Assembly: GCA_018697295.1 (NCBI GenBank)
Contig: JABHTJ010000002.1
Coordinates: forward strand, 162,955-226,954
Direction: 5' to 3'
Source of the DNA: an archaeon
GTDB taxonomy: Archaea > Nanobdellota > Nanobdellia > Pacearchaeales > GW2011-AR1
Length of the DNA stretch: 64,000 nucleotides
The first letter of the stretch is position 1, and the number at the start of each line of letters is the position of its first letter. The position numbers were made by a program, and so were the translations under genes. Positions 11,234 through 38,912 of the stretch are shown here, in pieces. The notes under the pieces are model-generated. The model saw only the letters and a list, made by a program, of their open reading frames with translations. It was not told the DNA's origin and ran no database searches.

Positions 11234-11310
11234 GATTCTCAATTGACGTCTCGTACGCCTATTTTGAATTGCGCCACGACGCTCCTCGTTCACGGTGGCG
11301 CTTGACAATC
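11234..11310 (-). repeat. Dispersed 77-nt structured element, copy 1 (ncRNA, REP or MITE-like)
   Basis: 59/77 ungapped identity to 38836..38912; terminal IR GATTSTC/GACAATC; internal GCGCCAC/GTGGCGC stem. Confidence 0.8.
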
Positions 11311-11375
11311 TAAGAAGTTTTAATTCGCAAAAACATTTATATAACCTTAATTCATTATAATGTTAAGGAGGTAAA

Positions 11376-11630
11376 GTGATGAAATTAGCAAATATCAAAT
11401 ATAAATCTGCAGTGTTCTTTGGAGTGTTCGTGTTTATTTCGGCAGTTCTTCAGACATTAGTTTCTCATCTTGCATATGGTTTAGCGAATGCGAGCATGCT
11501 CGATTTATATCTTTTGAATCCATTAAAAAGTGCGGCAATTATGTATATAACATTTTTTGTTGCAATTTATATCTATAATCTTTTAGCAAAGAAAGGATAT
11601 GGATTTTCTTGGGAGATGTCCAAGAAATAA
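11376..11630 (+). CDS. Small two-TM membrane protein
   Basis: AGGAGG RBS before the start; TATA box at about 11336; two hydrophobic segments. Confidence 0.75.
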   Translation: MMKLANIKYKSAVFFGVFVFISAVLQTLVSHLAYGLANASMLDLYLLNPLKSAAIMYITFFVAIYIYNLLAKKGYGFSWEMSKK

Positions 11631-11647
11631 ATTTTTTTATTTTTACT

Positions 11648-12931
11648 TTAATTTTTTAAATTGGGGTTAAATTCCCCTGAAATATTTTCTAGCATTTTTT
11701 CTTTAATGCTTTTTTTCCAATTTGGATGGGCGAGAACCCATGAAAGTTTTACGAAGGCTGTTTCTGAGAGCATATCATCTAAGAAGATTATTCCGGTTTT
11801 TTGTAATTGCCTTCCTGCGGAATAAACATTTGGGTTGAGGTTTCCAAATATTGTTTGAGCCGTTGCACAAATTATCATTCCTGAAGATATTGCTTTTTTT
11901 ATTTTTGGAATCCAATTATTTTTGGAATCTTTGCTTGGAACATGGCCAAGTCCTGTTGTTTCAAGAATTAATCCTTTGTACCCATTCTTCTGATACCATT
12001 CTATAATGCCTGGGTCTTGTCCAGGATAAATTTTTATGATTGCAACATCTGGAGAATACTTAATATCCATTTTTACTTTTTTTGTTTTGTCTTTTGCTTT
12101 AAACTCTTTTAAAATTTCAAGATTTATTTTTTCTTTTGATTTTGCTATTTTTGCAATTGGTGATGTATTGATTGCCTTGAATGCATCTCTTTTTGATGAA
12201 TGCATTTTTCTTGTTTTTGTGGGATTTATTGCAATGCATGAATTATCGTTTGAATCTGCATGACCTATAATTGCAATTTGGGCAATGTCTGATGTTGCAT
12301 ACTTTGCAGAACATAACAAATTAAGATATGCGTCGGTTGAGCCTCTGTCAATTGATCTTTGAGAATACGTGATTGCAATTGGTTTGTTTAGTTGTTTAAT
12401 AAAAAATGAGAGTGCAGTTCCGGTATATGAAATCGTGTCTGTTCCTTGGGCAATTATTATTCCGTCGATAGATTCATCATTTAATAATGGTTCAATTGTT
12501 TTTGCAATCTTTATCCAATGGAAACTACTCATATTCTCTGAAAGTGCGAGGAATGGTTTTTTGATAGTTGTTATGTTTGCTATATCTTTTATTTCTGGAA
12601 CAATATTTAGAATTGCTTGTCCGTCTGTAGGAATTACTGCCCCAGTTTTTGAATCAAGACGAGAAGAAATTGTTCCTCCAGTAATTATTAATGCGATATT
12701 TTTTTTATCTTTGTTTATCTCTGGTTTGAACTCTTTTTTTGGAAGTTCTTTAGATTTTTCTAATAATTTTGCATTTAGGATTTCGTTTTCTCTAATTCCA
12801 ATGTTATATCCTGATTGGAGCTTTAGGAGAATTATTTCTGGGTCGTGAGATTCTAAGACATAACCTTCCCATTCTCTTGTTTTTGTTTTGAACAAGACTT
12901 TATCTCCCGGAGCGTATACTTTAGTTTTCAT
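11648..12931 (-). CDS. gatD: Glu-tRNA(Gln) amidotransferase subunit GatD
   Basis: KLQSGYNIGI N-terminal domain, TGGTISS, QGTDT, SQRSIDRGSTD, RKMHSSKRDAF asparaginase motifs. Confidence 0.95.
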   Translation of the reverse strand: MKTKVYAPGDKVLFKTKTREWEGYVLESHDPEIILLKLQSGYNIGIRENEILNAKLLEKSKELPKKEFKPEINKDKKNIALIITGGTISSRLDSKTGAVIPTDGQAILNIVPEIKDIANITTIKKPFLALSENMSSFHWIKIAKTIEPLLNDESIDGIIIAQGTDTISYTGTALSFFIKQLNKPIAITYSQRSIDRGSTDAYLNLLCSAKYATSDIAQIAIIGHADSNDNSCIAINPTKTRKMHSSKRDAFKAINTSPIAKIAKSKEKINLEILKEFKAKDKTKKVKMDIKYSPDVAIIKIYPGQDPGIIEWYQKNGYKGLILETTGLGHVPSKDSKNNWIPKIKKAISSGMIICATAQTIFGNLNPNVYSAGRQLQKTGIIFLDDMLSETAFVKLSWVLAHPNWKKSIKEKMLENISGEFNPNLKN

Positions 12932-13009
12932 AATTATTCTAGGAAGATTTAGATTTTAAAGTTTACGGGATATACTCAGATTTATATATCTTTGAATAAT
13001 TTATTAGTT

Positions 13010-13267
13010 ATGGAAATTATGATGTATGTTAAACCTGGATGTCCTTTTTGTAATTCTGCTCAAAAATTTTTTGATGAAAAGAATTTGGAATACAAAACGA
13101 TTAATTATTTTGAAATTAATCGTGATGAAATGGATGGACTTATGAAAAAGACTAATAATTGGCCGACAGCTCCTATGATTTTTATTGATGGGAATTTTTA
13201 TGGCGGTTATCAAGATCTTTTGAAGTTAGATAATTCTGGGAAGCTCGACGAGATTTTAAAAAAATAA
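13010..13267 (+). CDS. Glutaredoxin
   Basis: CPFC, TAPMIFI, GGYQDL; ATG at 13010 fits TATA spacing. Confidence 0.92.
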   Translation: MEIMMYVKPGCPFCNSAQKFFDEKNLEYKTINYFEINRDEMDGLMKKTNNWPTAPMIFIDGNFYGGYQDLLKLDNSGKLDEILKK

Positions 13268-13319
13268 ATTAAGGAAAATCTTTAAATAGATGTTATCGAT
13301 TTATTATATTAGGTGATAT

Positions 13320-14696
13320 ATGGAAAAGGAAAAAGGTGTTTTATTTGTAGTTTTTGGAGCGACTGGAAATTTGACTAAGAAAAAGTTGATTCCAGGAATT
13401 TATAATTTGGTTAAACGCAAGGGAATTAAGAAATTTAAGATTCTTGGGATTGCTCGCAGACCCTCTAGTGGGCATAAAATTGCTATGTCTGGGAAAAAAC
13501 ATATTGATGGAAAAATAGACTCTTCCGCTTTTTCTAACGTTCTTGCGAATACTCATTACGTTCAAATGGATTTTAGCGAATCTATTGATTATGTTAAATT
13601 GCAACAGAGGATACAAAAATATGAATCTGATGGATTTGCCAATAAAGTTTTTTATTTAGCGACTGGCTCTGATAAGTTCGAAGTTATTTCTAGTAATTTG
13701 AAGAAAATTGGAGTAACTAAAGAGAAAAAATGTTGGACTCGCGTTGTCTATGAAAAACCTTTTGGAAAAAATTTGAAGAGTGCAAAGAAATTGAACGCGT
13801 GTATTCATAAAATTTTTGACGAGAAGCAAATTTATCGGATTGACCATTATCTTGGAAAAGAACTTGTTGAAAATGTTTTAGTTCTTCGTTTTACGAATCG
13901 TGTTTTGGAGCCTGTTTGGAATAAATATCATGTTGAAAGTATTAGTGTCGTTCTTGACGAGAATGTTGGAATTGGTGAACGAGGTGCCTATTATGATTCT
14001 TATGGAGCTGTTCTTGATATGGTTCAAAATCATATGTTGCAACTTTTATCTTTAGTTACTATGGAAATGCCAGAATCTTTTTCTGGAGATTTTATTCAAA
14101 ATAAAAAAGCAGAACTTTTAAAAAATGTTCGAATTACGAAAACTCTTGTTGGACAATATAAGGGTTATACTAGTGAAAGCGGTATACCTAAAAATTCAAA
14201 AACAGAAACCTTTGCTGCCCATCTCTTAAAAATTAAAAATCCGCGTTGGAATGGTGTTCCAATTTATTTTAGGACGGGTAAATTTTTGGGAAAAAAGGAA
14301 TCAAAGATTGTAATTAATTTTAAGCCGGTAAAATGTTTGTTTGATAAAACGTGTCCGTCGAATGGAAATTCTTTAGAGATAAGATTATTTCCAAATCCGG
14401 GAATTGAGCTTATTCTTAATTCAAAATCTCCCGGAAAGCAAGCTGCGAGAAATATTAAAATGGACTTTTGTTATGATTGCGAGTATGGCCCAAATACCCC
14501 TGAAGGATATGAAAATTTGTTTAAGGATATTCTTTTAGGGAATCAAACTACCTTTACTCGAGAAGATGAGCTTTTCAATTCTTGGAAAATTGTAGATAAG
14601 GTTTCTCGAGGTAAACTTCATAAGTATTCTAAGAAAAGTACGGGTCCTAAGGCTCTTGAGAAATTTAATAAAAATTCTGGAGTTAGATTGGCATGA
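13320..14696 (+). CDS. zwf: Glucose-6-phosphate 1-dehydrogenase (bacterial type)
   Basis: GATGNL, EKPFG, RIDHYLGKE, DMVQNH, RTGK. Confidence 0.96.
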   Translation: MEKEKGVLFVVFGATGNLTKKKLIPGIYNLVKRKGIKKFKILGIARRPSSGHKIAMSGKKHIDGKIDSSAFSNVLANTHYVQMDFSESIDYVKLQQRIQKYESDGFANKVFYLATGSDKFEVISSNLKKIGVTKEKKCWTRVVYEKPFGKNLKSAKKLNACIHKIFDEKQIYRIDHYLGKELVENVLVLRFTNRVLEPVWNKYHVESISVVLDENVGIGERGAYYDSYGAVLDMVQNHMLQLLSLVTMEMPESFSGDFIQNKKAELLKNVRITKTLVGQYKGYTSESGIPKNSKTETFAAHLLKIKNPRWNGVPIYFRTGKFLGKKESKIVINFKPVKCLFDKTCPSNGNSLEIRLFPNPGIELILNSKSPGKQAARNIKMDFCYDCEYGPNTPEGYENLFKDILLGNQTTFTREDELFNSWKIVDKVSRGKLHKYSKKSTGPKALEKFNKNSGVRLA

Positions 14697-15598
14697 AGAT
14701 TGGCTTTGTAGGGTTGGGGAGAATGGGATCTGCGATGGTTCAAAATTTGTCAGAGCATAAGCATTCAGTTGTCGTTTACAATCGCTCAAAAGGTCCTGCA
14801 AAAAAACTTAGTAATGGAAAAAATATTTTTGCGAGTGATTCTTTGGAAGATATGGTTTCTAAACTTCCAAGTAATGAGCGAAAAATTATTTGGTTAATGG
14901 TTACTGCAGGAAAAGTTGTCGACAAAATTATGTTTTCATTAATTCCATTATTAAATAAGGGAGATATTATTATCGATGGAGGAAATTCATTTTACAAAGA
15001 TTCTATTCGAAGAAATAAGACTTTGAAGAAAAAGGGAATTTATTTTTTTGATTGTGGCACGAGTGGCGGAATTGAGGGTGCTCGACATGGTGCTTGTATG
15101 ATGATTGGAGGAGAGAAGAAAATTTTTAGAACTATTGAGCCTTTGTTTAAATCAATGTGTGTGGAAAATGGTTCTGGTTATATGGGAAAAAGTGGTGGTG
15201 GACATTTTGTCAAGATGGTTCATAATGGAATTGAATATGGGATGATGGGATCTATTAATGAGGGATTTTTGGCGCTTGAAAAATATGAAAAGAAATTTGA
15301 TTTTGATTTGAAAGAAGTTTCTAAAGTGTATGCGAATGGGAGTATAGTTGAAGGTCGCCTAATGGGTTGGCTGTGGGATTCTTTTAGGAGAGAAAAATAT
15401 CTGCGTTCTATTAGTTGCGAGGTTCCTCGAGGAGAAACTGAAAAAGAAATGAGAAAATTGGAACGACTCTCTGAAATGAAGATTTTGCAAGAAGCTAGAT
15501 TGATGAGGAAACGAACTCGAAAGCTTGGACGATGTGGTAGATTAATTGCTGCTATGAGAAATCAATTTGGCGGTCATGCTGTTAAAACGCGAAGATAA
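14693..15598 (+). CDS. gnd: 6-phosphogluconate dehydrogenase, decarboxylating (short form)
   Basis: GLGRMG, IDGGNS, GTSGG, VKMVHNGIEYG, RNQFGGH; ATGA overlap with zwf. Confidence 0.95.
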   Translation: MKIGFVGLGRMGSAMVQNLSEHKHSVVVYNRSKGPAKKLSNGKNIFASDSLEDMVSKLPSNERKIIWLMVTAGKVVDKIMFSLIPLLNKGDIIIDGGNSFYKDSIRRNKTLKKKGIYFFDCGTSGGIEGARHGACMMIGGEKKIFRTIEPLFKSMCVENGSGYMGKSGGGHFVKMVHNGIEYGMMGSINEGFLALEKYEKKFDFDLKEVSKVYANGSIVEGRLMGWLWDSFRREKYLRSISCEVPRGETEKEMRKLERLSEMKILQEARLMRKRTRKLGRCGRLIAAMRNQFGGHAVKTRR

Positions 15599-15602
15599 TC
15601 TA

Positions 15603-17426
15603 ATGTTAATGATGGAAAAAAAATTACAACAAATTGCGAAGGTTCTTAGAAAAGATTCTCTTGAAATGACGACTTCAGCTGGAAGCGGGCATCCCTCTTC
15701 GTGTTTGTCTTGTGCAGATTTAATGAGCGTTTTGTTTTTTAATGAAATGAAATATGATGTTAAAAATTCTAAAAATCCTGATAATGACGAATTTATAATG
15801 AGTAAGGGTCATGCTGCACCAATTCTTTATTCTTCATTGTATCGTGCAGGATGCATTAAAGATAATCTGATGAAACTTAGAGATTTGAAGAGTAATCTTG
15901 AAGGCCATCCAGTTCCTTCTAGTCTTGATTGGATCAAAGTTGCTACAGGTTCGCTTGGACAAGGACTTGGTGTTGGAGTTGGAATGGCAATTGCTGCGAA
16001 ACTACAGAAAAGAAAAAATAAAATATTTGTTTTGATGGGAGATTCTGAAGTTGCTGAAGGTTCTGTTTTTGAAGCTATGGAACTTGCACAGCATTATAAA
16101 TTGAACAATCTTGTTGCAATTATTGATATTAATCGACTCGGACAGCGAGGAGAAACATTGCTTGGACACGATATTAGCGCGTATAAAAAAAGATATGCTG
16201 GATTTGGATTTGAAATTTTTTCAATTGATGGAAATTCAATTAAGGAAATTTTGAGAGTTTTCAAAAAAGCTCGTACTTCAAAAAAACCTGTTTTAATTTT
16301 AGCTAAAACTTTGAAAGGAAAAGAAGTATCTTTGCTTGAAAATAAAAATGGTTGGCATGGAAAAGCGTTAAAATCTGAGGAACTTGAACATGTTTTGGAA
16401 GATCTGGGAGAAGCAAAAATGCCCAAGGTAACTATTCGAAAACCAATAAAAAAACTTTATCCTTTTTCTAAAAAGAAGTTGAAATTAAAGAAATATTCTT
16501 CTGATGTTGCAATTGCTACTCGGAAAGTTTATGGAGAAACGCTTGCTTCTCTCGCTCTTGCAAATGGAAATGTTTTGGGAATTGATGCAGAAGTTTCGAA
16601 TTCTACTTTTTCTGCAGAATTGAAAAAGAAAACTTCAAAACAATTTATTGAAGCTTTTATCGCAGAACAAAATATGCTTAGTGTTTCGCTTGGCTTAAGT
16701 AAAAAGGGGTTTAGAGTTTTTGCGTCGACGTTTTCTGCCTTTTTATCTCGGGCACACGATCAAATTCGAATGGCTAGTTTAAGTGATGCTAACTTCGTTG
16801 TTTGCGGAAGTCATAGTGGGGTTTCAATTGGTGAAGATGGTTCGAGTCAAATGGGTCTTGAAGACATTTCACTTTTTCGTAGCTTGAATAATTCTCAGGT
16901 TTTCTATCCAAGCGATGCATTGAGCGCCCAAAAATTAACTGTTGCTGCTTCAAAACTCTCTGGAATTACTTATCTTCGTACGAGTCGACCCGCAACGTTT
17001 CCATTGTATTCTTCATCTGAAAAATTTAATGTTGGAGATTTTAAAATTTTAAAACAATCAAAAAAAGATGTGGCTGTTTTTGTTGGTTCTGGAATTACGG
17101 TTTATGAAGCACTCAAGGCACACGAAGCAATGGGGAAGAAAGGAATTAGTGTGGCAGTTGTTGATTTATATTCTATAAAACCCTTTAATCATGCAAAGTT
17201 TATTCGATTTGTGAAAAAACACGGAAATAAAATTGTCTTGGCCGAGGATCATCGTAGTGAGGGTGGAATTGGAGAGATGGTTGCCGAAGGTTTGGTTGGT
17301 AAAAATATTTCAATGAAACATTTGGCCGTTAGAAAATTATCCCATTCTGGAACTGTGGATGAACTTCTTGAGAGGCATAAGATAAATTCTAAAGCTTATT
17401 TGGAAGGATATAAAAAACTAAAATAG
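15603..17426 (+). CDS. tkt: Transketolase (single chain)
   Basis: SGHPSS, SKGHA, LEGHP, TGSLGQG, GDSE, IAEQNM, GEDGSSQ. Confidence 0.95.
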   Translation: MLMMEKKLQQIAKVLRKDSLEMTTSAGSGHPSSCLSCADLMSVLFFNEMKYDVKNSKNPDNDEFIMSKGHAAPILYSSLYRAGCIKDNLMKLRDLKSNLEGHPVPSSLDWIKVATGSLGQGLGVGVGMAIAAKLQKRKNKIFVLMGDSEVAEGSVFEAMELAQHYKLNNLVAIIDINRLGQRGETLLGHDISAYKKRYAGFGFEIFSIDGNSIKEILRVFKKARTSKKPVLILAKTLKGKEVSLLENKNGWHGKALKSEELEHVLEDLGEAKMPKVTIRKPIKKLYPFSKKKLKLKKYSSDVAIATRKVYGETLASLALANGNVLGIDAEVSNSTFSAELKKKTSKQFIEAFIAEQNMLSVSLGLSKKGFRVFASTFSAFLSRAHDQIRMASLSDANFVVCGSHSGVSIGEDGSSQMGLEDISLFRSLNNSQVFYPSDALSAQKLTVAASKLSGITYLRTSRPATFPLYSSSEKFNVGDFKILKQSKKDVAVFVGSGITVYEALKAHEAMGKKGISVAVVDLYSIKPFNHAKFIRFVKKHGNKIVLAEDHRSEGGIGEMVAEGLVGKNISMKHLAVRKLSHSGTVDELLERHKINSKAYLEGYKKLK

Positions 17427-17428
17427 AT

Positions 17429-18394
17429 TTACCAACACTCTTTTGAGATGTTTACTCTTTCATGTTTAATCTTCTTTAGAATTTGTTGGAGTGAGAGTAG
17501 CCCTGTATTTTTTTGCTGAGTGATTATTGATTGAGCACTTTTTATTGCGATTTTTATTGATTTTTCTATATCGTCATATTTTATCATTGAAGATACAAAT
17601 GAGATTGCAAATACATCTCCTGCTCCTGTTGATTTTTTCGCGGTTATTTTTTTCGGTTTAAATGTGTAGATATTTTTTCCGTTAGAAATTTTTCCTTTTT
17701 TATTTCCGTTAGTTATGCAAATAATTTTTGCTCCAAGTTTATGCAACTTTTTGAAAATTTCCTTTTCATTTTTTGCTTTTTTGACAAGGGTGTGTGCCTC
17801 TTCTTTATTCATTTGAAGAATATCTGCGTTTTTTATGATTTTTTTTATTTTTCCCAATCCTTGATTTATTTTTTTTATTCCGGGATTGTAAGATATTTTA
17901 ATATTATTTTTTATTGCAAAACTGATTAATTTTTTTTGTGTTTGAAATGATTCGTCATTCATCGATGTGAAATGAAACCATTTTGTGTTTAATTTTTTGA
18001 GATTGATTTCATTATAGGAAAGCATATCACTTGCTCCCTTGAATGTGAGGATTGTTCTCCTATTGTTTGTACTCTTGAGAATAATTGAATAGCCGGTGTG
18101 TTCTTTTGATGTTGTTCCTAGGAAATCTACATTTGATTTTTTTAGTTCTCTAAGAATTATTTGTGCGTTATAACCAGAGCCTATTTTTCCAAGAAATGCT
18201 GTTTTCATTCCAAGTTTTGATGCACATCTTGCAGTATTTGTTCCTCCACCTCCGCTTGAAAAAATTATCTTATCTAGGGGAATTTTTGTTCCGAGTGGAA
18301 TTTTTATAAAATGATTTTTTTCTTGAATATTTGTTTGAAGAGATGCATCGATTAAACCACTTCCAACTGTTATGATGTCGTATTTCTTCCCCAT
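17429..18394 (-). CDS. PfkB family carbohydrate kinase
   Basis: GGGGTNTA, NKEEA, STGAGDVF. Confidence 0.9.
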   Translation of the reverse strand: MGKKYDIITVGSGLIDASLQTNIQEKNHFIKIPLGTKIPLDKIIFSSGGGGTNTARCASKLGMKTAFLGKIGSGYNAQIILRELKKSNVDFLGTTSKEHTGYSIILKSTNNRRTILTFKGASDMLSYNEINLKKLNTKWFHFTSMNDESFQTQKKLISFAIKNNIKISYNPGIKKINQGLGKIKKIIKNADILQMNKEEAHTLVKKAKNEKEIFKKLHKLGAKIICITNGNKKGKISNGKNIYTFKPKKITAKKSTGAGDVFAISFVSSMIKYDDIEKSIKIAIKSAQSIITQQKNTGLLSLQQILKKIKHERVNISKECW

Positions 18395-18486
18395 CTTTTT
18401 TGTTTAAGGAAGTTGAGGTATTTATAGGTTTTTGTTTGAATTGTTTTAGAAACTATTAAATAACTTCTTCTCGATTAGTTTTTAAG

Positions 18487-19143
18487 ATGGTGAAAAAGAA
18501 GAATATTCTAATTTGTTTTGATCGCGATGGGACGATAATTTATGATGATAAATATCATTTAGGAAGTCAAAAAAATTGGAAAGATTTGATTCGCTTTAGA
18601 CGAGGGATTTTTGGCAGTTTGAAAATGTTGAATAAAAAACTTCCTGATGCTAAAATTTATATGATTTCTAATCAGTCTGGTGTTGCGATTAAAGATTTTC
18701 CCTTACTTACTGAAAAAAAATCCAGAGAAGTTTGTCGTTATATTGTAAACTTGATTAAGGAACGAGGTGTTGACTTGGAAAAATGTTTTGTTTGCCCTCA
18801 TACGACCAAAGCATATACAAAATCTCATCCACAATTTACCTTCGATAAAAAAATTCTTTGTAATTGTAAATGTAATAAACCTCTTCCTGGAATGGTTTTG
18901 GAGGCTCTTAGGGATGCTGGTTGGAAACGAGAAAATACTTCTATTTATATTGTTGGAGATAGGGCAAGCGATTTACAAACTGCTCATAATGCTCGCGGTT
19001 TTGGAATTTTAGTTCCTTTTGGAAATCGTCCTGGGGAGAAAAAGTTGGTTGGGAAATTGAAAGATAAGGAAAGGCATATTTCGAAGAATTTTGGAGATGC
19101 TGTAGAATTTATTGTTCATCGTGAAAATGGTTTGCGAGCTTAA
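18487..19143 (+). CDS. HAD-IIIA phosphatase (GmhB/HisB-like)
   Basis: FDRDGT, SNQSG, CPH...CKCNKP, VGDRASD. Confidence 0.9.
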   Translation: MVKKKNILICFDRDGTIIYDDKYHLGSQKNWKDLIRFRRGIFGSLKMLNKKLPDAKIYMISNQSGVAIKDFPLLTEKKSREVCRYIVNLIKERGVDLEKCFVCPHTTKAYTKSHPQFTFDKKILCNCKCNKPLPGMVLEALRDAGWKRENTSIYIVGDRASDLQTAHNARGFGILVPFGNRPGEKKLVGKLKDKERHISKNFGDAVEFIVHRENGLRA

Positions 19144-19781
19144 TTTACTTTATATTTTTTATAATTTAAACAAAAATTCTCGTTTCCGGTTAGAAATTTC
19201 TCATAAGAATTGTCAATAATCTTAATTGCTTCATTACATGTCTTTACAGCAATTATTGGATTTAAATCTGATTTTTTCATTCTCCCATTTTTTACAGGAT
19301 ATTTTTCTAACCATGAAATTAGTTCGGGCCACATATTGCCAATAAGAATTATTGGAACATTACACGTTTGTTTTACTTGCATTAGTTGTAATGCGTAGAA
19401 AAATTCTAAAATTGTTCCAATGCCTCCAGTTGCAACAACAAACGCATTTGAGAGATTCATGAAATTATCGAGCCTGTTTGAAAACCTGCTGAACTGTTTT
19501 TTGATATCTAAGAATTTTGATGCTTTTTGTTCTGTTGGCAATTTAATCAATAGACCGATTGAGTGAGATTTTTTACCAGATTTTTTTCTTCCAATTCTAT
19601 GACCTTCGCTTGCTGCCTGCATAAGTCCGGGACCACCACCAGTTACTATATCAATTCCTCTCTTTCCCAACATTTCTGCAAGATTTGAAGTTTGTTTGTA
19701 ATATTTGTCATCTTTCTTTATTCTTGCAGAACCAAATATTGTTACTCTGAAATCTTTTCTTTTCCTTTCTTTTCTCATCAT
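19140..19781 (-). CDS. LOG family nucleotide phosphoribohydrolase
   Basis: IFGSAR, TGGGPGLM, GGIGTILE. Confidence 0.92.
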   Translation of the reverse strand: MMRKERKRKDFRVTIFGSARIKKDDKYYKQTSNLAEMLGKRGIDIVTGGGPGLMQAASEGHRIGRKKSGKKSHSIGLLIKLPTEQKASKFLDIKKQFSRFSNRLDNFMNLSNAFVVATGGIGTILEFFYALQLMQVKQTCNVPIILIGNMWPELISWLEKYPVKNGRMKKSDLNPIIAVKTCNEAIKIIDNSYEKFLTGNENFCLNYKKYKVN

Positions 19782-29015: not shown

Positions 29016-29016
29016 T

Positions 29017-29977: not shown

Positions 29978-30208
29978 TTAAAGCTTGAGAGCGCTTTTTA
30001 ATTTCGCCTCATCAAATCCTGTGACGATCGTTCCATTTGCATCAATTACTGGAACTCCCATTTGACCGGATTTATCCATCATTTCTTTTGCTTTCTTTTC
30101 GTCGCTACTTACATCTACATTCTTGAAAGAAACTTTGTTCTCTTTTAGAAATGCTTTCACTTTTTTGCACCAAGGACAAGTTGGTGTTGAATATACTGTT
30201 ACTGCCAT
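29978..30208 (-). CDS. Glutaredoxin-like protein (YruB/NrdH type)
   Basis: YSTPTCPWC, SGQMGVPVI, GFD; GGAGG RBS. Confidence 0.93.
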   Translation of the reverse strand: MAVTVYSTPTCPWCKKVKAFLKENKVSFKNVDVSSDEKKAKEMMDKSGQMGVPVIDANGTIVTGFDEAKLKSALKL

Positions 30209-30300
30209 TATTACCTCCTTTTGATTAGTTAAACTAATTAGTTACTCAAGTGTATCTTTGCTTTTATACTTTTTGGAAACTGTGTTGACAAAATTTAGAT

Positions 30301-30933: not shown

Positions 30934-30934
30934 T

Positions 30935-31417
30935 TTATTTTTTCGAAGACAATTTTTCTATTTTTTTTAATCTTCTTTTGTGGCGAGTGTCGTTGCTGAA
31001 CGGGGTTTGTAACCAAACTGTAATCGCTCTTTTGACTAAATTTTCATCCATGAAGAATGCTCCGAGAGACAATACATTTGAATTATTGTGTTCTCTGGAT
31101 AATTTTAAGATTTTTTCTGGCGGTGAAGATCCATAGTAAAGTGCGGTTCTAATTTTTGGAACCCTATTTGCTGCGATTACTTCTCCTTGGCCTGAACCTG
31201 CAATGATTATTCCTCTGTTGTTAGGATTTTTAGCTACGAGTTTTGCCATAGGAATTACATAGTCTGGATAATCGTCATTTGGATCCGAATTAAATGGGCC
31301 TACGTCTTCTACTTTGAATCCTTTTTTTTCAAGCCATGGCTTTATCTTTTCTTTTATTTTGAAACCTGCGTGATCTCCTGAAAGATATATTTTCTTTATT
31401 TTAATTTTTTGTTTCAT
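30935..31417 (-). CDS. rpiB: Ribose-5-phosphate isomerase B
   Basis: GDHAG, DDYPD, GSGQG, REHNNSN, RHKRR. Confidence 0.93.
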   Translation of the reverse strand: MKQKIKIKKIYLSGDHAGFKIKEKIKPWLEKKGFKVEDVGPFNSDPNDDYPDYVIPMAKLVAKNPNNRGIIIAGSGQGEVIAANRVPKIRTALYYGSSPPEKILKLSREHNNSNVLSLGAFFMDENLVKRAITVWLQTPFSNDTRHKRRLKKIEKLSSKK

Positions 31418-31418
31418 T

Positions 31419-32366
31419 TTATTCTACTATTGGTTTAATCTCTGATTTAAATATTTTGGAAATATCTTGGGTATACCTTACAATATTTTCTTTGAAATAA
31501 GGTTTTTTTGCTTTTTGGATTTTTCCGATTATAAAATAGCTAACTGCCATCATTGTTGCGTAATCTGCACCTTTTGGAAGTGGAATATTGAGGCGATTTT
31601 TGCCGTAGGTTTTATTTTTTTCTCCGAAGCTGATGAACAATTCCTTTGATGGGACAAGTGTTGTTGCATGTTTTACGTATTCGAGTGTTTCAACATCTCT
31701 TGCGACAACTCGACCAAAGAGTTCAATGAATTTTACTTGGAGCATACGAACAATTCCAGAAAATTTTGTCGGTACTATGATATAGTATTTGTCATACTTT
31801 TTGAAGTTAGGTAGTTTTATCTTATTTGTATTATTTTGAATATAGTTTAGAATCTTTCTTGGACTTTCGTTGGTTTTTCCTAAAATCATCCCAATATAGG
31901 TTGAGGTATTGTAGGTATATGGTTCTCGTTGTTTTGGAAAAACATATTCGTCGTAAGGATGTTTTTTATCGAGGAATTTTTCTGCAGGTGCAGTTTTTTC
32001 ATTAGTAATAAGTGTTACGTGCTTTTTGTAATTCTTAGAAATCTTGGCAATTATTGGAGCGTGTTTTGCTCCTGAAGCTGAAATTAAAACTACTCCATCA
32101 ATTGATTTTATGTTTTTTAATTTTTCTTCAAAATTAGATTCGCTTGCAAAAATTGCATCTCTATTTTCGAAAATTATTCTTCCTGTCGCCTCCGCATTCC
32201 CTGAACCGACGACTAATGGTTTTTCGTAAGGGACGATTATCGACTGTAGCTTCTCCTTTGAGAAAAGTTCTAATGCTCCAAGTACACAAGTATCTAAGTC
32301 TGGAATATTTTTTAGAGAAAAACTTTGCATTATGTCGTAGTTAGGACTAAGATTTTTTTTCACCAT
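31419..32366 (-). CDS. SIS-domain sugar isomerase-like protein (possible PGI/PMI)
   Basis: VVGSGNA, VLISASG, LIT SIS-like strands; first gene of the rpiB-rpe operon. Confidence 0.55.
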   Translation of the reverse strand: MVKKNLSPNYDIMQSFSLKNIPDLDTCVLGALELFSKEKLQSIIVPYEKPLVVGSGNAEATGRIIFENRDAIFASESNFEEKLKNIKSIDGVVLISASGAKHAPIIAKISKNYKKHVTLITNEKTAPAEKFLDKKHPYDEYVFPKQREPYTYNTSTYIGMILGKTNESPRKILNYIQNNTNKIKLPNFKKYDKYYIIVPTKFSGIVRMLQVKFIELFGRVVARDVETLEYVKHATTLVPSKELFISFGEKNKTYGKNRLNIPLPKGADYATMMAVSYFIIGKIQKAKKPYFKENIVRYTQDISKIFKSEIKPIVE

Positions 32367-32466
32367 CTTTATTTTATTAACTGGAAGCAGTATTTAATAA
32401 TTTTGGTTTCTGAAGGAGAAAATTTGTAATAATAAAAAAATAAAAATTGAATAAATCTAAATAGAT

Positions 32467-32799
32467 TTATTCGTTTGATTGAGCGTCTTCGATAGCTTCT
32501 GCGTCTGCCATTGGAGCTTCTGATGATTCTCCTCTTGGAGCTCGGTCATCGTCTCGTGGAGTCATTGGACGAGCTTCGTTAACATTTAATGCTCTTCCTT
32601 CGATTTCCTTTTGATCCATATCGGCCATTGCCTTTTTAGCTGAGTCTTCATCGTTGATTGTTACAAATCCAAATCCTTTTGATCTTTTAGAAAATTTGTC
32701 TACAATTACGTTTGCTTCATCAACTCCGTAGCTTTCGAATAATGCCGCTAGTGCTTTATCATCAATACTCCAGGCTAAATTACCTACATATAATTTCAT
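32467..32799 (-). CDS. RRM RNA-binding protein
   Basis: KLYVGNL (RNP2), RSKGFGFV (RNP1), LNVNEAR; GGAGG RBS. Confidence 0.95.
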   Translation of the reverse strand: MKLYVGNLAWSIDDKALAALFESYGVDEANVIVDKFSKRSKGFGFVTINDEDSAKKAMADMDQKEIEGRALNVNEARPMTPRDDDRAPRGESSEAPMADAEAIEDAQSNE

Positions 32800-32906
32800 A
32801 TTTATTTATCCTCCCGTGATTTAATTGTAAATTGCATTCTTAGAAACATTCCTTATATCCTTGAATTTCTTACTGATTTTGATTATTTAAAGGTTTGTAA
32901 TTAGTT

Positions 32907-33612
32907 GGCTTTGTGTAAAAAGTCTAGTTAATGACTCACTTTATACACAAAAATCTCAAGAATATATAATTTAGGCATATAATTTTTTTAATTTTCCATT
33001 ATAATTAATTCTTATATGAAAATGTATCTGGTTACGATTATCTATCGCCTTCTCGGCAGTTTCTTCGTCCGGGAAGGTTAATTCAGCTTTTAATTTGAAG
33101 GACTCATAAGAGTTTAATTGGAAAGGTATTGAAAGAATATAAAGAAATGGATTTTTTGCATGAAAGAAGTGCAATGATAATAAAAAAGAGGCTAGCAGTG
33201 GTTGAATTTGTTCACGGGTTAGAATTAATTCTCAAAGCAATTCTAATAAGAAAAGGTTATTGTATCTATAAATTCAAGAACAATAAGATATTCAAGAATA
33301 ATGAAAAAATTGAAAGACTTGTATCCTCTGATAGGACTATAGAGCTAGAAGGTGTCATAAAATTCTTTAAGAAAGAATATCCAGAGCTTTCTTTTAATCT
33401 AGTTGATAAGTTGAGAGTTCTTAGAAATCAGATTACTCACAAAGGCACGGAAATAAGTGAAAAGAAAAGGGATTATTTTATTGGTGCCATAAATTGCTTA
33501 ATTGAGGTTTATGAAAAAGAAGATATAAGAAATAGAAAATTCCTTGGAATTATTAGGCAGGCAAAATTAGATATTTGACTTTATACACAGAAGCCACTTA
33601 ATCCACAAAGCC
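32907..33612. mobile_element. Non-autonomous mini-transposon / mobile insertion cassette (IS1595-ISPna2-like ends) carrying a HEPN gene
   Basis: Left end GGCTTTGTGTAAAAAGT; right end reverse complement GGCTTTGTGGATTAAGT; direct repeat TAATTAGTT at 32898-32906 and 33613-33621; no transposase inside. Confidence 0.8.
33129..33578 (+). CDS. HEPN-domain protein (putative RNase toxin/defence effector)
   Basis: N-terminal helix GLELILKAIL (ExxxK) and LRVLRNQITH (R-X4-H). Confidence 0.72.
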   Translation: MKEYKEMDFLHERSAMIIKKRLAVVEFVHGLELILKAILIRKGYCIYKFKNNKIFKNNEKIERLVSSDRTIELEGVIKFFKKEYPELSFNLVDKLRVLRNQITHKGTEISEKKRDYFIGAINCLIEVYEKEDIRNRKFLGIIRQAKLDI

Positions 33613-33615
33613 TAA

Positions 33616-34728
33616 TTAGTTAAATTGCAGTATGATTCCTATGATAAATGCAAGAGTTAATAGGATTATGATTGGTGTGTTGATGAAAACCTTTATTTCA
33701 GGTTTTCTTTGTCCTTTTTTCTCCTCTTTTGCTCCTTTATTGATTAGCAGAATTAAAACTCCAGTTATTCCTGTCGAAATCACTCCTGCGATTCCAAGAA
33801 TCGAAGAAAATCCTAACAAATTGAATTTTTGGATTATGATGTATAGAATTAGTGGCATTAAGGAGGTGAATATGAATGTTTTTCTCTTTGAGAAGTTAAG
33901 GTCGAAAAGACAGCTATCTCTTAGGGAAAATGAAAGTACGAAATAGGATGTGAGCATGGTGAATATTCCGAGAATTATTATGATTGGTCCAAAAGAGAGC
34001 GTTGCGACTTCGGTTACGCTTTTTCCAAGGACTCCGACAAAGGTTGCCGTGAATATTGTGTAGAGAATGACTGGAATTGATAGTCCGATGAAAATTGCTT
34101 TTTTGAAGTTTTTCTCTTGACCTTTTATTTCGAGACGTAGTTCTGGGATTGCCGTGAAGCCAAGTAATGCAAATAATATTACTCCTATTGGAAATGTGAA
34201 ATTATTTGGCGGGATTGTTGTAAGATTTGCTGGATTAATGTTTTGGAGGTGGTAAATAAATAATCCGAGAATGATTGCGATGATTGCGATGACGCCATAT
34301 GTTTCAACTTTTTTGAGGCTCTTTAATCCTTCTCGTAAGAGTAACGTCATGACAAGCCAGAATAAGAATCCAAGAAATAGTGGGTTGATGTTTCCTGGAA
34401 GAAGCTGGGAAAAACTTTGACCTTCTCCGATTAGGTATGCGATTAGTGCAGAATAAACTCCAAAGATTACTGTTAGAAACATTATTTTTTCTCCCCAAGG
34501 TCCTAGGTATATTTTTGCATAACCTGTGAGTTGGTGTTTTGATTTTGTTCTTAGAGTTACTTCTGCAAGAGAAAAATTAATGAAAAGCATGACAATGGAG
34601 AGAATGATGAGCCAGAAGATTCCGACGAGAAAACCTGATTTTGCGAAAACAAATGGAAGACCAAGAATTCCTGCACCGATAACTGCACCTGAGAGTGTGA
34701 ATGTTGTTGCCCAGAATTTTTTATTCAT
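33616..34728 (-). CDS. Aromatic amino acid permease family transporter
   Basis: GAVIGAGILGLP, about 11 TM helices, GFTAIPE. Confidence 0.88.
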   Translation of the reverse strand: MNKKFWATTFTLSGAVIGAGILGLPFVFAKSGFLVGIFWLIILSIVMLFINFSLAEVTLRTKSKHQLTGYAKIYLGPWGEKIMFLTVIFGVYSALIAYLIGEGQSFSQLLPGNINPLFLGFLFWLVMTLLLREGLKSLKKVETYGVIAIIAIILGLFIYHLQNINPANLTTIPPNNFTFPIGVILFALLGFTAIPELRLEIKGQEKNFKKAIFIGLSIPVILYTIFTATFVGVLGKSVTEVATLSFGPIIIILGIFTMLTSYFVLSFSLRDSCLFDLNFSKRKTFIFTSLMPLILYIIIQKFNLLGFSSILGIAGVISTGITGVLILLINKGAKEEKKGQRKPEIKVFINTPIIILLTLAFIIGIILQFN

Positions 34729-34838
34729 AGTATCACCTTTGTTTTGATGGTTGAGCGTGTTTATAAGATTTTATGATTGATTTAATCACACACAATTTTT
34801 TAAATGAATTTTTGCTTATTAAATTCCTTGGGTGAAAT

Positions 34839-36644
34839 ATGGTAGAAATTGTAGTAAATGATAACTTTAACGAAGCAGGTGAAGCTAACTTATTCGAAGA
34901 TATTGGTAATGGGAAATTTGAGTCTTCTGATTTATTTAAACTTAGAATGGATGTAGATGAACTAGTTGAGGATTCGGAAATTAATGAACTTTTATCTTAT
35001 GGGAGTTTTTCTAAAAACTTGGCGTACGATTTGCCTTATCAGAGGTCTGGTGCGATTAAACTTTTGCGAGATTTTAATATGAGTGCTCTTTTGGCTGATG
35101 AGGTTGGACTTGGGAAAACTATTACGACAGGAATGGCGATTAAGGAGGGAATTTATCGTGGGTTTTTGAAAAAGATTGTTATTTTAACTCCTCCAAGTTT
35201 GGTTGATCAATGGGTGATTGAACTTCGAGATAAATTTGGGTTAGAGTTTAATATTATTGAGTCTGCCGAGGATTGGAATAAATTTGATTTTGCTATTGCG
35301 TCAATTGATCGTGTGAAGATTTTTGACAAAGTTACTCGTGGATTCCGGCATAAAAGTGCACATTCTGTTTTGTGGGATTTGGTGATTGTTGATGAGGCTC
35401 ATAAATTAAAAGAAAAAAATACGGTTCGTTGGAAATTTGTAGATCGGCTGCAAAAAAAGCGGTTTTTGCTCTTGACAGCGACGCCATTTCAAAATGATTT
35501 GATTGAACTTTACAATCTTTTACATTTGCTTAAGCGTGGTCACTTGGGAACAATAAAGGAATTTCGGCAAAAATTCTTATACCGAGGAAATAGTCGTCAT
35601 CCTCTTAATCCCCTTGACTTGAAAAAAAAATTAGAAGAAGTTATGGTTCGGCGTCGACGTGATGAAACTGGAATTGATTACAAGGCTCGTGTTCCAAAAA
35701 TTGTTACTGTTGAACTTAGCAAAACTGAGAAGATGATTTATGATAATACTGTTCGATTGTTAAAGGAGAATTATTTTCGTGCAGATGGTCGGGAAATTAA
35801 TGCCCTCTTGATCGTGTTTGCAATTTTGCCAAAGATTACGAGTTCATCTGCTTCGGCTAAAGAGAGTTTGCAAAGAATTATTGATACTGAAACTTACCAT
35901 GAAATTACAAAGACGTTTGCGCAAGGTATACTTGATGATTATGCAACTGTTGAACGCGATTCGAAAATTGAAAAATTGGTTGAGTTGATTGAAGAAATTA
36001 TTTCTCGCAAAAATGAAGATGGAAGTAAATCAGACGAGAAGATTTTAATTTATACTCGGCATCCAACCACACTTCGCTATATTGTTGAAAAGCTCAAGCC
36101 ATTTAATTTGAAAATTATTGAATTTATGGGTGGGCTTGATAGAGAAGAAAAATCGCGAAGGATAGAATCATTTAAACGAGGTGAAGCAGATATTATGATC
36201 TCGACAGATACTGGGGCGGAAGGACTTAATTTTCAGTTTTGTCGGAATTTAATTAATTATGATTTGCCTTGGAATCCGATGTCAGTTGAACAGCGAATTG
36301 GTCGCCTTGATAGGATTGGTCAGAATAGGGATATGTACATTTATTCGTTTGCGACGAAGGGAACGATGGAAGAACATGTAGTTGACCTGATAATAAATAA
36401 GATGTGTTGTGTTGGGCTTGTGATTGGTGAGTTGCCGATTATTTTATTTAATCTTGGACTTGATGGCGAGGGAAAATCTGGAAGAAATAAAATTGAAGAG
36501 AAGTTGATGGCGTCGTTTATCGAAGGGAAAGGGAACTTAGAATTTTTTGCTCGAAACGTAAATGAAATTGCTGCAGAGATTAGTTTAGGCATGAAAGATT
36601 ATGAAAATGATAAAGTTAGCAATAAGAAATTTTTTGATGAATAA
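34839..36644 (+). CDS. SNF2-family helicase/ATPase (YqhH-like)
   Basis: LADEVGLGKT, VDEAH, LTATPFQN, GAEGLNFQ, YDLPWNP, EQRIGRLDRIGQ. Confidence 0.92.
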   Translation: MVEIVVNDNFNEAGEANLFEDIGNGKFESSDLFKLRMDVDELVEDSEINELLSYGSFSKNLAYDLPYQRSGAIKLLRDFNMSALLADEVGLGKTITTGMAIKEGIYRGFLKKIVILTPPSLVDQWVIELRDKFGLEFNIIESAEDWNKFDFAIASIDRVKIFDKVTRGFRHKSAHSVLWDLVIVDEAHKLKEKNTVRWKFVDRLQKKRFLLLTATPFQNDLIELYNLLHLLKRGHLGTIKEFRQKFLYRGNSRHPLNPLDLKKKLEEVMVRRRRDETGIDYKARVPKIVTVELSKTEKMIYDNTVRLLKENYFRADGREINALLIVFAILPKITSSSASAKESLQRIIDTETYHEITKTFAQGILDDYATVERDSKIEKLVELIEEIISRKNEDGSKSDEKILIYTRHPTTLRYIVEKLKPFNLKIIEFMGGLDREEKSRRIESFKRGEADIMISTDTGAEGLNFQFCRNLINYDLPWNPMSVEQRIGRLDRIGQNRDMYIYSFATKGTMEEHVVDLIINKMCCVGLVIGELPIILFNLGLDGEGKSGRNKIEEKLMASFIEGKGNLEFFARNVNEIAAEISLGMKDYENDKVSNKKFFDE

Positions 36645-36656
36645 AAATTAAAAAAA

Positions 36657-37133
36657 TTATTTTTTTTCTTTCCAGGCAACGAATCCGATAACTACGAAGT
36701 AGAGGGGCGTTCCGATTTTTGGGACTATTTGTGCGAGGCTAAACCATCCAGGATATTTTCTTGCTTCAAAAATTCTCCAGTGGGAGATTATTAATAATAT
36801 GAATAGTGCTACCCAGCCAAGAATTGGAATTAGTATTAAGAAAATCCATGCCCAATGGAAACCTCCAAGTTGTAATCTCATTGCACTTGATGCGAATGGA
36901 ATCCATGCAAGCCACGGGTTTTTATGTTTTGATTTTTTTGCAATTGTTTGCCATGCGAGTGCGTGATAGATATATAGTGCTGCTAATAATGTTATCGCGA
37001 ATAATATTCCAAATGCAAGTAGGATTCCGGCAATGCCTCCTGCAAAACCTCCTGCGAAATTTTGTGCGATTGGACAATTTGCTATAGCTGATTCATTTCC
37101 TGCGAAAAATTCTGTGCATGTGCTGAATACCAT
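36657..37133 (-). CDS. Membrane protein (DUF5684-like)
   Basis: WQTIAKK...WLAWIP, LIPILG; several TM helices. Confidence 0.75.
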   Translation of the reverse strand: MVFSTCTEFFAGNESAIANCPIAQNFAGGFAGGIAGILLAFGILFAITLLAALYIYHALAWQTIAKKSKHKNPWLAWIPFASSAMRLQLGGFHWAWIFLILIPILGWVALFILLIISHWRIFEARKYPGWFSLAQIVPKIGTPLYFVVIGFVAWKEKK

Positions 37134-37202
37134 CTTTTTATTACTTATAGTAAGTGGTTATTGTTTATAAAATTTGGGTTTTTTGTCGGTTTAGGATTTA
37201 TC

Positions 37203-37228
37203 GTTTTTGGCAACGTGTTACCAAAAAC
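37203..37228. promoter_or_regulatory. 26-bp near-perfect palindrome (candidate operator or hairpin)
   Basis: GTTTTTGGCAAC-GT-GTTACCAAAAAC, one mismatch. Confidence 0.45.
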
Positions 37229-37375
37229 TCGAGAGGGTGCAGTTTGTGAGTGCCTAGGTTTTGTGTTGTTGGTTGGTACTGGATTAATCCGATTAGGAAT
37301 AATCTAGTTGGGTTGGTTAGATTGGGTGCGGTTTAGTACAACAATTCCTTTAAACTCTAGTCTAATTCTAAAAAC

Positions 37376-38821
37376 ATGTCATCAAAAATAGAAACATTCA
37401 CGGAGGAATTTCTCAAGAATCTCAATGCAACAATAACCAAAAACTCGTCAACATGGAATGTCGAAAACATCCCGCAGAGTTTTCAGGATTTTGTTGGACT
37501 CTCTGCGCCATACACATTAAACTTCGCGGAATCAACTGACGACTCGCTTTTTGTTGGGCGGGGGAGTCGGTTCTTTTCTGCGATGACGCAATATCTTGAG
37601 AATGTGGGGAAGAATACTATTCTCAAGATTGACTTTGATGATTCGTTGCATAATCCTGTGGAGGAAATACGTAAGCGGATTTCTTTGAAGAACTGCGAGA
37701 TTGAAAATCTTGCGAAGACTTTTACGAATCATTTTTTTACGCGGTTTACGTTTCGAACTCAGTTTCGTTATTTGAATGAGTCGGAAACGGTGATGGGTGA
37801 AATTTATGTTCATGATGGTGAGGTAGTCTCGGGAGATTTATCTGGATATCGAGTTGTTGAGGGGACGCTGGACTCCTCTAGTTCTTCTGATTCTTCTCAG
37901 TCTTCTCATTCATTGAATGTTTCCCCGGATACTCTTCGTCCAGATCATGAAATTGCTATTGCGCGAGTTAAGGAATTGGTGATTAGTAAAACTCATGAAA
38001 TTAGTGAAGTTCTTGAAAAAAATTTGGGCGAAGAAGAATCTCGAATTCGGATTCACTATGAGAATTTGTTGGGGGAACTTGGAGGTGACTTGCAAAGTAG
38101 GATTAGTAAAATTAAGGAGCTTGAACTTGCTCTTCGAGTTGCAGATGGCGTGGAGGCAGATGAACTTCGAGTAAAGCATGAACGGCTTCAAAAAAATCTT
38201 GTTAAGATTGGAGATGACGATTCCCGTTCGAGAATTTTAAAAGAACAGTCGTTTACATTGCAGGATGCGAAGACAAAACATTCTTTGACTATTGATAATA
38301 AACTTATGAACACGACGATTATTTATTATCCTGTTTATTCTTGCAACTTATATTTGAAGGGATACGACTCGAAAAGATTTATTACACTTTCTTATGATCC
38401 ACTTTTACAAAAACTTGGAGCAATTAATTGCGAAGTATGTAAAAATTCTGTAGTCGATATTAATCTTTGTTCTAATGGACATATTACTTGTGAGGATTGT
38501 TTAGATAAATGTGGGGAGTGTGGAAAGATTCATTGTAAGACTTGCGTTTCTAAATCTTGTAGTGGTTGTGCGAAAAAACTTTGTAAGTCTTGTTCGTTTT
38601 TATGTTTTGGTTGTAGTAATTATGTTTGTATTAATCATTTGAGAAATGATGTTGTGACTGGCGAACAGCGTTGTGCAATGTGTCTTCGTGCGTGTCTGCG
38701 CTGTCATGGATTAACGGAAGCGAAATATTTTGGTGAAGCGATTGATGGTTCAAAAGTTTGTCAGAAATGTTTGGGTGGAGAAAGAAGAGGGGAAGTTTTG
38801 AAAGATGTTTTTCGAGAGTGA
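37376..38821 (+). CDS. YqhG-like coiled-coil protein with C-terminal multi-CxxC zinc-finger array
   Basis: FTEEFL...LNF...GSRFF N-terminus, central coiled coil, more than 10 CxxC/CxxH pairs; near SNF2 gene on same strand. Confidence 0.7.
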   Translation: MSSKIETFTEEFLKNLNATITKNSSTWNVENIPQSFQDFVGLSAPYTLNFAESTDDSLFVGRGSRFFSAMTQYLENVGKNTILKIDFDDSLHNPVEEIRKRISLKNCEIENLAKTFTNHFFTRFTFRTQFRYLNESETVMGEIYVHDGEVVSGDLSGYRVVEGTLDSSSSSDSSQSSHSLNVSPDTLRPDHEIAIARVKELVISKTHEISEVLEKNLGEEESRIRIHYENLLGELGGDLQSRISKIKELELALRVADGVEADELRVKHERLQKNLVKIGDDDSRSRILKEQSFTLQDAKTKHSLTIDNKLMNTTIIYYPVYSCNLYLKGYDSKRFITLSYDPLLQKLGAINCEVCKNSVVDINLCSNGHITCEDCLDKCGECGKIHCKTCVSKSCSGCAKKLCKSCSFLCFGCSNYVCINHLRNDVVTGEQRCAMCLRACLRCHGLTEAKYFGEAIDGSKVCQKCLGGERRGEVLKDVFRE

Positions 38822-38835
38822 TGGATTGACTTATC

Positions 38836-38912
38836 GATTGTCAATAGCGCTTTTGTAGCGCTATTTTGTATTGCGCCACGACGCTCTTTTGTCGCGGCGG
38901 CGCTGGACAATC
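38836..38912 (-). repeat. Dispersed 77-nt structured element, copy 2
   Basis: Same length as 11234..11310, 77% identical; TAGCGC/GCGCTA hairpin; perfect GATTGTC/GACAATC ends. Confidence 0.8.

Follow-up and report, generated by a model that had tools for sequence, protein, structure and literature searches.

The window analyzed here is a 64,000-nucleotide (nt) stretch of an archaeal contig (GCA_018697295.1, JABHTJ010000002.1, positions 162,955 to 226,954), in which two GC-rich intergenic sequences of 77 nt were originally predicted, from the sequence alone, to be copies of a dispersed structured element. The source genome, G000, comprises 0.73 Mb in 9 contigs and is 85% complete, and the window corresponds to C6:162955-226954 in its contig C6. 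Both sequences lie where the original prediction placed them, at 11234-11310 and 38836-38912, and have the predicted length and the predicted 18 mismatches (positions 5, 11, 13, 14, 15, 17, 19, 23, 24, 25, 34, 52, 54, 55, 56, 59, 63, and 70). The GC content of each is 0.52, compared to 0.344 for the window. As also predicted, copy 1 lies between divergent open reading frames (ORFs) (10518-11183, minus strand, and 11376-11630, plus strand) and copy 2 between convergent ORFs (37376-38821, plus strand, and 38959-43536, minus strand). Both stretches are members of a family, not described before, of small folded multicopy repeats in a few marine DPANN-type archaea. Their parts are listed below, where the sense of the covariance model (CM) is the window minus strand and lies on the C-rich strand.

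11234-11310 (G000:C6:174188-174264), minus strand in CM sense: copy 1, 91.3 bits with the covariance model (E = 3e-22)
11234-11240: copy 1, one arm of closing stem P1, pairing with 11304-11310 with one G.G mismatch
11304-11310: copy 1, other arm of P1 (RNAfold)
11241-11263: copy 1, hairpin P3 (hairpin A of the original prediction)
11271-11301: copy 1, hairpin P2 (hairpin B of the original prediction)
38836-38912 (G000:C6:201790-201866), minus strand in CM sense: copy 2, 98.9 bits with the covariance model (E = 2e-24)
38836-38842: copy 2, one arm of closing stem P1, pairing with 38906-38912 (RNAfold and family covariation)
38906-38912: copy 2, other arm of P1 (RNAfold and family covariation)
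38843-38865: copy 2, hairpin P3 (hairpin A), with a variable stem sequence and a conserved 5-nt loop, ACGAA/ACAAA in CM sense
38866-38872: copy 2, P2/P3 junction, conserved and A-rich in CM sense
38873-38903: copy 2, hairpin P2 (hairpin B), with a 7-bp stem, a 2- to 3-nt bulge, a 2- to 3-bp stem, and the apex GC-GA-N5-GA-GC in CM sense (tandem G.A, K-loop-like)

The same anatomy recurs across the family. Read in CM sense, a 7-bp P1 joins both ends and is followed by a 1- to 2-nt linker and then P2, which consists of a 7-bp stem, a bulge of 2 to 3 nt on the 3' side, 2 to 3 G-C pairs, and a near-invariant GA-N5-GA apex. The P2/P3 junction is conserved and A-rich, and P3 has a variable stem capped by a 5-nt loop of ACGAA, ACAAA, or ACGAG. 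The three-way junction originally proposed for both copies was recovered by RNAfold, as closing stem plus two hairpins, on both strands of copy 2 (z scores of −3.68 for the plus strand and −6.55 for the minus strand) and on the minus strand of copy 1 (z = −2.33), but not on the plus strand of copy 1, where folding was no better than that of shuffled sequences (z = −0.79). In both copies, the CM sense is therefore the better-folding strand as RNA, whereas under DNA parameters the two strands differ by about 1 kcal/mol and are approximately equal.

Two fully compensatory changes proposed for hairpin A, at pairs 14-24 (C-G to G-C) and 15-23 (G-C to C-G), are evident in the two window sequences themselves, and the stems go on covarying in the additional copies. 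Among 31 copies (30 distinct), 88.0% of alignment cells paired, compared to 21.6 to 39.5% with slid partners. Both sides had changed in 19 of 26 pairs, compared to a shuffled mean of 11.9 (standard deviation, 1.6), and none of 500 shuffles reached the observed value on any of five measures. All 7 pairs of P1 changed on both sides across the family, and the first 11 copies had given the same trend. Because of this covariation and helix pairing across 31 copies, the structure is real and under selection. The choice of strand is a separate matter. The original prediction took the minus strand to be functional based on G-U wobbles, which holds for the two window copies but reverses in the family: in the minus (CM) sense, 9 G-U pairs were counted versus 14 A-C mismatches in 11 copies, and 20 versus 39 in 33 distinct copies. 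An A-C excess in CM sense equals G-T on the G-rich strand, as C-to-T pressure on that strand or the mutational skew of the genome would produce, and because this skew would give the same excess, the wobbles yield no strand call.

BLAST, nhmmer, and the covariance model all returned the same six copies in G000, all on C6 and all in one orientation. Besides the two in the window, these are C6:74582-74659, C6:97807-97883, C6:125194-125301 (a 108-nt variant), and C6:129401-129478. The likeness of these copies is far above chance, because all six had nhmmer E values of 6e-8 or less, while the next match had an E value of 1.1. A scan for GC-rich intergenic islands found no hidden copies on the other G000 contigs. 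Besides these six copies in the source genome, about 30 were found elsewhere, 6 to 7 of them in a congener.

This congener, G016 (5 copies at E ≤ 0.01 and 7 at E ≤ 1), and G000 are the only carriers among 49 genomes of the genus, and the element was found in 0 of 150 other genomes sampled at the order level. A third carrier, G073, is a metagenome-assembled genome (MAG) labeled Pacearchaeota with 8 to 9 copies, and a sample of its order likewise gave 0 of 150 other genomes. The carriers are distant, because the arginyl-tRNA synthetases (ArgRS) of G073 and G000 share only 34% identity. G073 was reached through a loose pattern scan of species genomes that gave at least 120 stretches; of the 80 loci listed from it and scored with model R1, only one (L040) was a true member, and the rest were mostly chance matches in GC-rich bacteria. 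A stricter pattern applied to metagenome contigs gave 23 stretches, on which model R2 scored 29 places. Twenty of these rows, representing 13 unique loci, were accepted as members, on contigs with a GC content of 0.42 to 0.50 that often bore several copies, and nine were removed as probable chance matches (L162, L168, L171 [two rows], L160, L178 [two rows], L177, and L159), with a GC content of 0.63 to 0.75 and the P2-like part only. Three pattern scans of viral contigs gave 0, 4, and 2 stretches, and none of these 6 matched model R2. The sequencing runs containing the sequence were marine, and genes flanking the copies were archaeal (DnaG-type primase, archease, ArgRS, and HerA-like ATPase).

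Element length across the family ranges from 57 to 143 nt and is typically 77 nt. An extra conserved module in the P2 bulge is common to the 108-nt copy of G000 and a 101-nt copy of G016 (L144:1501-1601), which are at nonorthologous loci. Three additional hairpins are present in a 143-nt copy of G073, and a 57-nt variant lacks the P2 apex. As originally predicted, no known family accounts for these sequences. Rfam 15 at gathering thresholds gave only a tRNA in the window (43632-43704), and at E ≤ 10 the region from 11150 to 11400 gave 3 matches of 10.5 to 19 bits, compared to thresholds of 42 to 70, none on the structured core. No description of the element was found in a limited sample of the literature on DPANN MITEs (miniature inverted-repeat transposable elements), Pacearchaeota repeats, and K-loop small RNAs.

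Positions of the copies turn over between genomes. Only one G016 copy (L012) is syntenic with a G000 copy, beside a HerA-like gene; here the G000 variant is 108 nt long, and that of G016 is 77 nt long with a different P3. Because each copy at this locus matches other copies of its own genome, the difference suggests conversion or replacement. Opposite a second G016 copy (L014), G000 has an empty site, with the alignment gap ending no more than 1 base from the element ends and a run of six T residues on each side. In a metagenome TatD gene, a 210-nt in-frame insertion (L165:5023-5232; 70 codons, no stop) holds one antisense copy, and the TatD orthologues of G000 and G016 lack query residues 161 to 230. 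The same insertion also holds a further perfect 7-bp hairpin, and folding of the larger TatD insertion gave nothing significant.

Elsewhere, copies lie between genes in divergent or convergent arrangement, or 2 to 15 nt past a stop codon on one strand or the other, with flanks that are T-rich on the G-rich strand and have no fixed motif. Pfam searches of 10 flanking proteins returned housekeeping families only. Neither G016 nor G073 yielded matches to the genes beside the two window copies, and synteny is lacking in G016 downstream of ArgRS. One metagenome contig (L161:410-868) has two co-oriented copies about 300 nt apart enclosing a 55-codon ORF with promoter-like and ribosome-binding-site-like sequences. 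On this contig, the first copy is followed by a partial third end, in which the last ~14 nt are repeated together with flank.

The most telling property of the family, which lay beyond the view of the original prediction, is that its orientation is locked to the replication strand. GC skew is positive over all 255 kb of C6, reaching zero only past ~245 kb, and is strongly positive throughout the window independent of gene direction. In G073, skew is 0.27 to 0.36, with the same sign in plus- and minus-strand genes. Because the sign is the same in genes of both directions, the skew is strand-wide rather than transcriptional. Of 20 copies in the three carriers, 18 have the CM-sense strand on the C-rich strand; the other two are the deletion variant of 57 nt and a hairpin with P2 only, which matches the model on either strand (27.3 versus 26.0 bits). 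All 13 unique metagenome loci have the CM sense on the C-rich strand as well. Same-locus duplicates (L164, L170, L175:8116, L166, L176, and L180) were left out of this count, as was L173, with a skew of −0.016 across just 1,045 nt. Overall, 31 of 33 unique copies agree (two-sided binomial P = 1.3e-7, with each orientation counted as a separate event although copies on one contig share a replichore), independent of the direction of neighboring genes. The C-rich strand is taken to be the lagging-sequence strand on the basis of skew polarity.

Two explanations for this orientation can be given. Insertion or excision at the fork may be strand specific, or copies with the better-folding strand on the lagging-strand template may survive less often. 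Near the end of C6 (G000:C6:244000-255147), skew is approximately zero and GC-rich islands are numerous; this region may mark a switch at the terminus or origin or, lying at the contig end, may be a foreign island.

We hold with moderate confidence that the family is a selfish, nonautonomous, structure-dependent mobile DNA repeat whose spread or copy survival is linked to replication. The view of a selfish repeat handled as single-stranded DNA (ssDNA) is favored by the patchy distribution, the turnover of positions, the clean filled and empty site, the copy inside a gene, the greater likeness of copies within a genome to each other than to their orthologues, and the orientation tied to replication rather than to transcription. 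By such a mechanism, a single strand of the element would fold into the three-way junction, with P1 pairing the ends and the P2 apex, junction, and P3 loop conserved. Folding of ssDNA at the replication fork would then govern the spread or survival of copies, and a trans-acting enzyme would move the element by acting on hairpins in one strand. Handling of one strand would leave copies sharing an orientation relative to replication, as in palindrome-associated transposable elements (PATEs) derived from IS200/IS605 and in repetitive extragenic palindromic (REP) elements. ssDNA as the acting form, the enzyme acting in trans, and the choice of active strand are all steps that we infer. Precedents for them exist, since IS608 and ISDra2 excise from and insert into the lagging-strand template, with family members showing a matching orientation bias (PMC5027513), and Y1 enzymes act on REP hairpins (PMC6006769).

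The resemblance to known elements of this kind is partial. Like IS200/IS605 PATEs, the element is short and noncoding, has a hairpin toward each end, depends on structure beyond sequence, lacks a clear target duplication, and has a strong orientation bias relative to replication (PMC5027513), here 31 of 33 copies. PATEs of this type have subterminal hairpins, lack terminal inverted repeats, and insert 3' of a fixed short target. The ends of the present element, in contrast, pair in a covarying 7-bp stem, no conserved tetra- or pentanucleotide target was seen, its carriers are DPANN-type archaea, and no Y1 transposase (PF01797) was found in the three of them. REPs occur in tens to hundreds of copies, each a single hairpin of ~20 to 40 nt marked by a conserved 5' tetranucleotide. 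In common with REPs and bacterial interspersed mosaic elements (BIMEs) handled by REP-associated tyrosine transposases (RAYT, or TnpA-REP), the copies are GC-rich intergenic palindromic repeats, often just past genes, and REPs are also thought to be handled as single-stranded hairpins (PMC6006769). The element differs as a 77-nt three-way junction with 6 to 9 copies, and no RAYT gene (PF01797) was found in its carriers. Of the three options offered by the original prediction, a REP-like element is nonetheless the closest to the evidence, while an attC-like site and a conserved noncoding RNA or ribozyme have lost ground, as set out below. Rickettsia palindromic elements are structured repeats that can sit in frame within protein-coding genes without closing the reading frame and, like the present family, are not known to have a mobilizing enzyme. 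The TatD gene with its open 210-nt insertion recalls these elements, although there is no sequence relation and the in-gene case is a single one. To our knowledge, an orientation lock to replication has not been described as a feature of Rickettsia palindromic elements.

Several results weigh against a mobile ssDNA repeat. A linked HUH or RAYT transposase, suggested as a check with the original prediction, was not found: Y1 transposase PF01797 matched in none of the three carrier genomes, with the control matching in 6 of 14 known genomes, and TnpB PF07282 exceeded its cutoff in none of the three. Y2 (PF04986), Viral_Rep (PF02407), and Rep_1 (PF01446) were likewise not found in any of the three carriers, a result that is uninformative because the controls were equally silent. 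The carrier MAGs are incomplete (85% and 70%, with no completeness figure for G073). The paired ends are themselves a difficulty, since IS200/IS605 ends do not pair with each other. The G-rich strand is the leading strand in other prokaryotes, and this polarity is assumed for the present lineage. If it applies, the tandem G.A and A-rich junction lie on the leading-strand template rather than on the lagging-strand template used by IS608-type enzymes. Copies inside one genome have diverged (76 to 86% identity), and recent bursts leave no sign. The empty site opposite L014 could be a precise deletion, and no consistent target-site duplication or target motif was found across copies. Finally, population polymorphism was not seen, in that contigs of 4 DNA runs span copy 2 unchanged and no joint skips it.

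Other enzyme families do not track the element. Tyrosine recombinases (PF00589) are unrelated to carriage, because they occur in 47 of 49 congeners, at 1 to 6 per genome, irrespective of the element, and the PF00589 genes sit on other contigs than the element copies. Of the three carriers, only G016 yielded a reverse transcriptase (PF00078). In that genome, the RVT_1 match at G016:C17:7557-8191 is split in two, with an in-frame TGA.

The same data can be read as small structured RNA genes, or transcript modules, transcribed in CM sense, with the P2 apex as a putative L7Ae-bound K-loop and the three-way junction forming a stable ribonucleoprotein (RNP). A K-loop has tandem G-A pairs and a terminal loop in place of a 3-nt bulge (PMC7991803), and the CM-sense strand, with its tandem G.A and A-rich loops, matches this description. 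The apex GC-GA-N5-GA-GC is nearly invariant in ~30 copies, unpaired regions are A-rich, helix expansions occur at fixed places in the 108-, 101-, and 143-nt variants, and both the strong covariation and the better folding of CM-sense RNA count in favor of this reading. In archaeal L7Ae K-loop RNAs (C'/D' motifs and H/ACA upper stems), as in the predicted P2 apex, tandem G.A pairs close a terminal loop beside G-C pairs, but the element shows no C/D boxes, pseudouridylation pocket, or ACA placement, and its loop is 5 nt, compared to 7 nt in the H/ACA K-loop described in PMC7991803. We consider this explanation unlikely, on several grounds. The distribution is extremely patchy, one copy is antisense within a coding sequence, and alignments contain no visible C/D boxes or H/ACA pocket. 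A TATA-like promoter at constant spacing is lacking on both strands; upstream TATA-like sequences are irregular, and the GC-rich flanks of several G073 copies contain none in the nearest 40 nt. Orientation ignores neighboring genes, such that the RNA would be head-on to replication in 31 of 33 copies, and the wobble count does not favor the CM sense. Patchiness, the filled and empty site, the in-gene copy, and the lack of a consistent promoter likewise weaken the conserved noncoding RNA or ribozyme of the original prediction. No RNA runs were among the 20 runs listed as containing the sequence. A small-RNA or RNP role of the CM-sense fold could also coexist with mobility.

Explanations based on double-stranded DNA or on a host function fare no better. 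A classical MITE moved by a DDE-type transposase would have P1 as its terminal inverted repeat and hairpins that are incidental or act on host transcripts. Such an element would account for the 7-bp inverted-repeat ends, the short, noncoding, multicopy nature of the family, its intergenic sites, and, as a possible target duplication, the T-run on both sides of the filled and empty site; MITEs are also reported to be widespread in prokaryotes (PMC11602168). This explanation is improbable, because the end repeats vary between subfamilies (GATTGTC, TCTCGAC, AGTTTGC, GATCGTG, and GGCGC arms) around a common P2/P3 core. In typical MITE families, the ends are conserved and the interior is not. Internal helices covary, the T-runs belong to a single site while other copies lack a consistent target duplication, and a strong replication-strand bias is not expected from cut-and-paste movement of double-stranded DNA. 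Just as improbable is a cis-acting host signal that works as folded ssDNA at the fork, in priming or single-strand initiation, polar fork pausing, or repair, with a few oriented copies per replichore kept by selection. The orientation locked to replication-type skew, the conserved loops, the low copy number (6 to 9 per genome), and the clustering of the six G000 copies in C6:74-202 kb, upstream of the skew-zero point near 245 kb, all fit such a signal. A host function should be widespread, however, yet 47 of 49 congeners lack the element, as do all 300 genomes sampled from the two orders; moreover, positions are not conserved between G000 and G016, and one copy interrupts a gene.

The least probable of these explanations, and one we give very little weight, is the attC-like site offered by the original prediction, in which folded single strands of an integron-like system would be recombined by a tyrosine recombinase. 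As proposed for the element, integron attC sites are recognized by their fold rather than their sequence, are co-oriented, have one active folded strand, and depend on orientation relative to replication (PMC5371416). Structure is kept while sequence varies, ends pair, some copies lie a few bases after stop codons, and a small ORF lies between two co-oriented copies in L161. Against this, the element forms no arrays, has no adjacent integrase or other recombinase gene, and lacks the R''/R' consensus end motifs. The G000 copies are 4 to 45 kb apart with housekeeping genes between them (ArgRS, DnaG, and HerA-like), and the PF00589 genes are unlinked to the element. An attC site is an R/L-box hairpin with extrahelical bases, whereas the element is a three-way junction right above a 7-bp stem, and it has no Rfam match.

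The finding is real, new in its details, and of a known general kind. A bolder version of the mobile-repeat reading, which is possible but doubtful, is that the family represents a new class of structure-defined mobile or chromosomal DPANN element, in which a folded single strand would be handled at the fork by an enzyme outside Y1 HUH and TnpB, with a recognition unit of paired ends plus two hairpins presenting the same 5-nt loop, or in which the same fold would be an L7Ae-type RNP module carried between genomes. DPANN archaea have tiny genomes and few recognizable mobile elements. With its clear covariation, nearly absolute replication-linked orientation, and lack of an identifiable transposase, the repeat family offers a clean natural system for the spread of structured ssDNA (or RNA) elements in archaea and for the strand exposed at archaeal forks, and a practical marker of replication direction in fragmented MAGs. 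For noncoding RNA discovery it carries a caution, in that strong covariation alone does not prove a host RNA gene.

A few other assignments were rejected. The inconsistent gene context excludes a simple riboswitch or terminator, in agreement with the original prediction. Self-cleaving ribozymes (hammerhead, twister, and others) gave no Rfam match even at E ≤ 10 around copy 1. ARAGORN called no tRNA or tRNA-like gene at any copy, and the genome has 35 ordinary tRNAs.

The ORFs beside copy 2 have features of their own. The 1,525-aa ORF at 38959-43536 (minus strand) contains a glycine/serine run together with numerous cysteine-rich repeats of the form C..G.DNDCDG, and by its sequence probably encodes a large surface protein. 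In contigs from other runs, length varies inside this ORF, where joints skip ~3 kb. The 481-aa ORF at 37376-38821 (plus strand) ends in a dense, zinc-ribbon-like cysteine cluster, was not found in G016 or G073, and is probably accessory. The 64-kb window has a single tRNA gene, Arg-TCG, at 43632-43704. Elsewhere in G000, two GC-rich islands with T-arm-like sequence (C9:9840-9928 and C9:55291-55372) were not called by ARAGORN and may be intron-containing or split tRNA genes.

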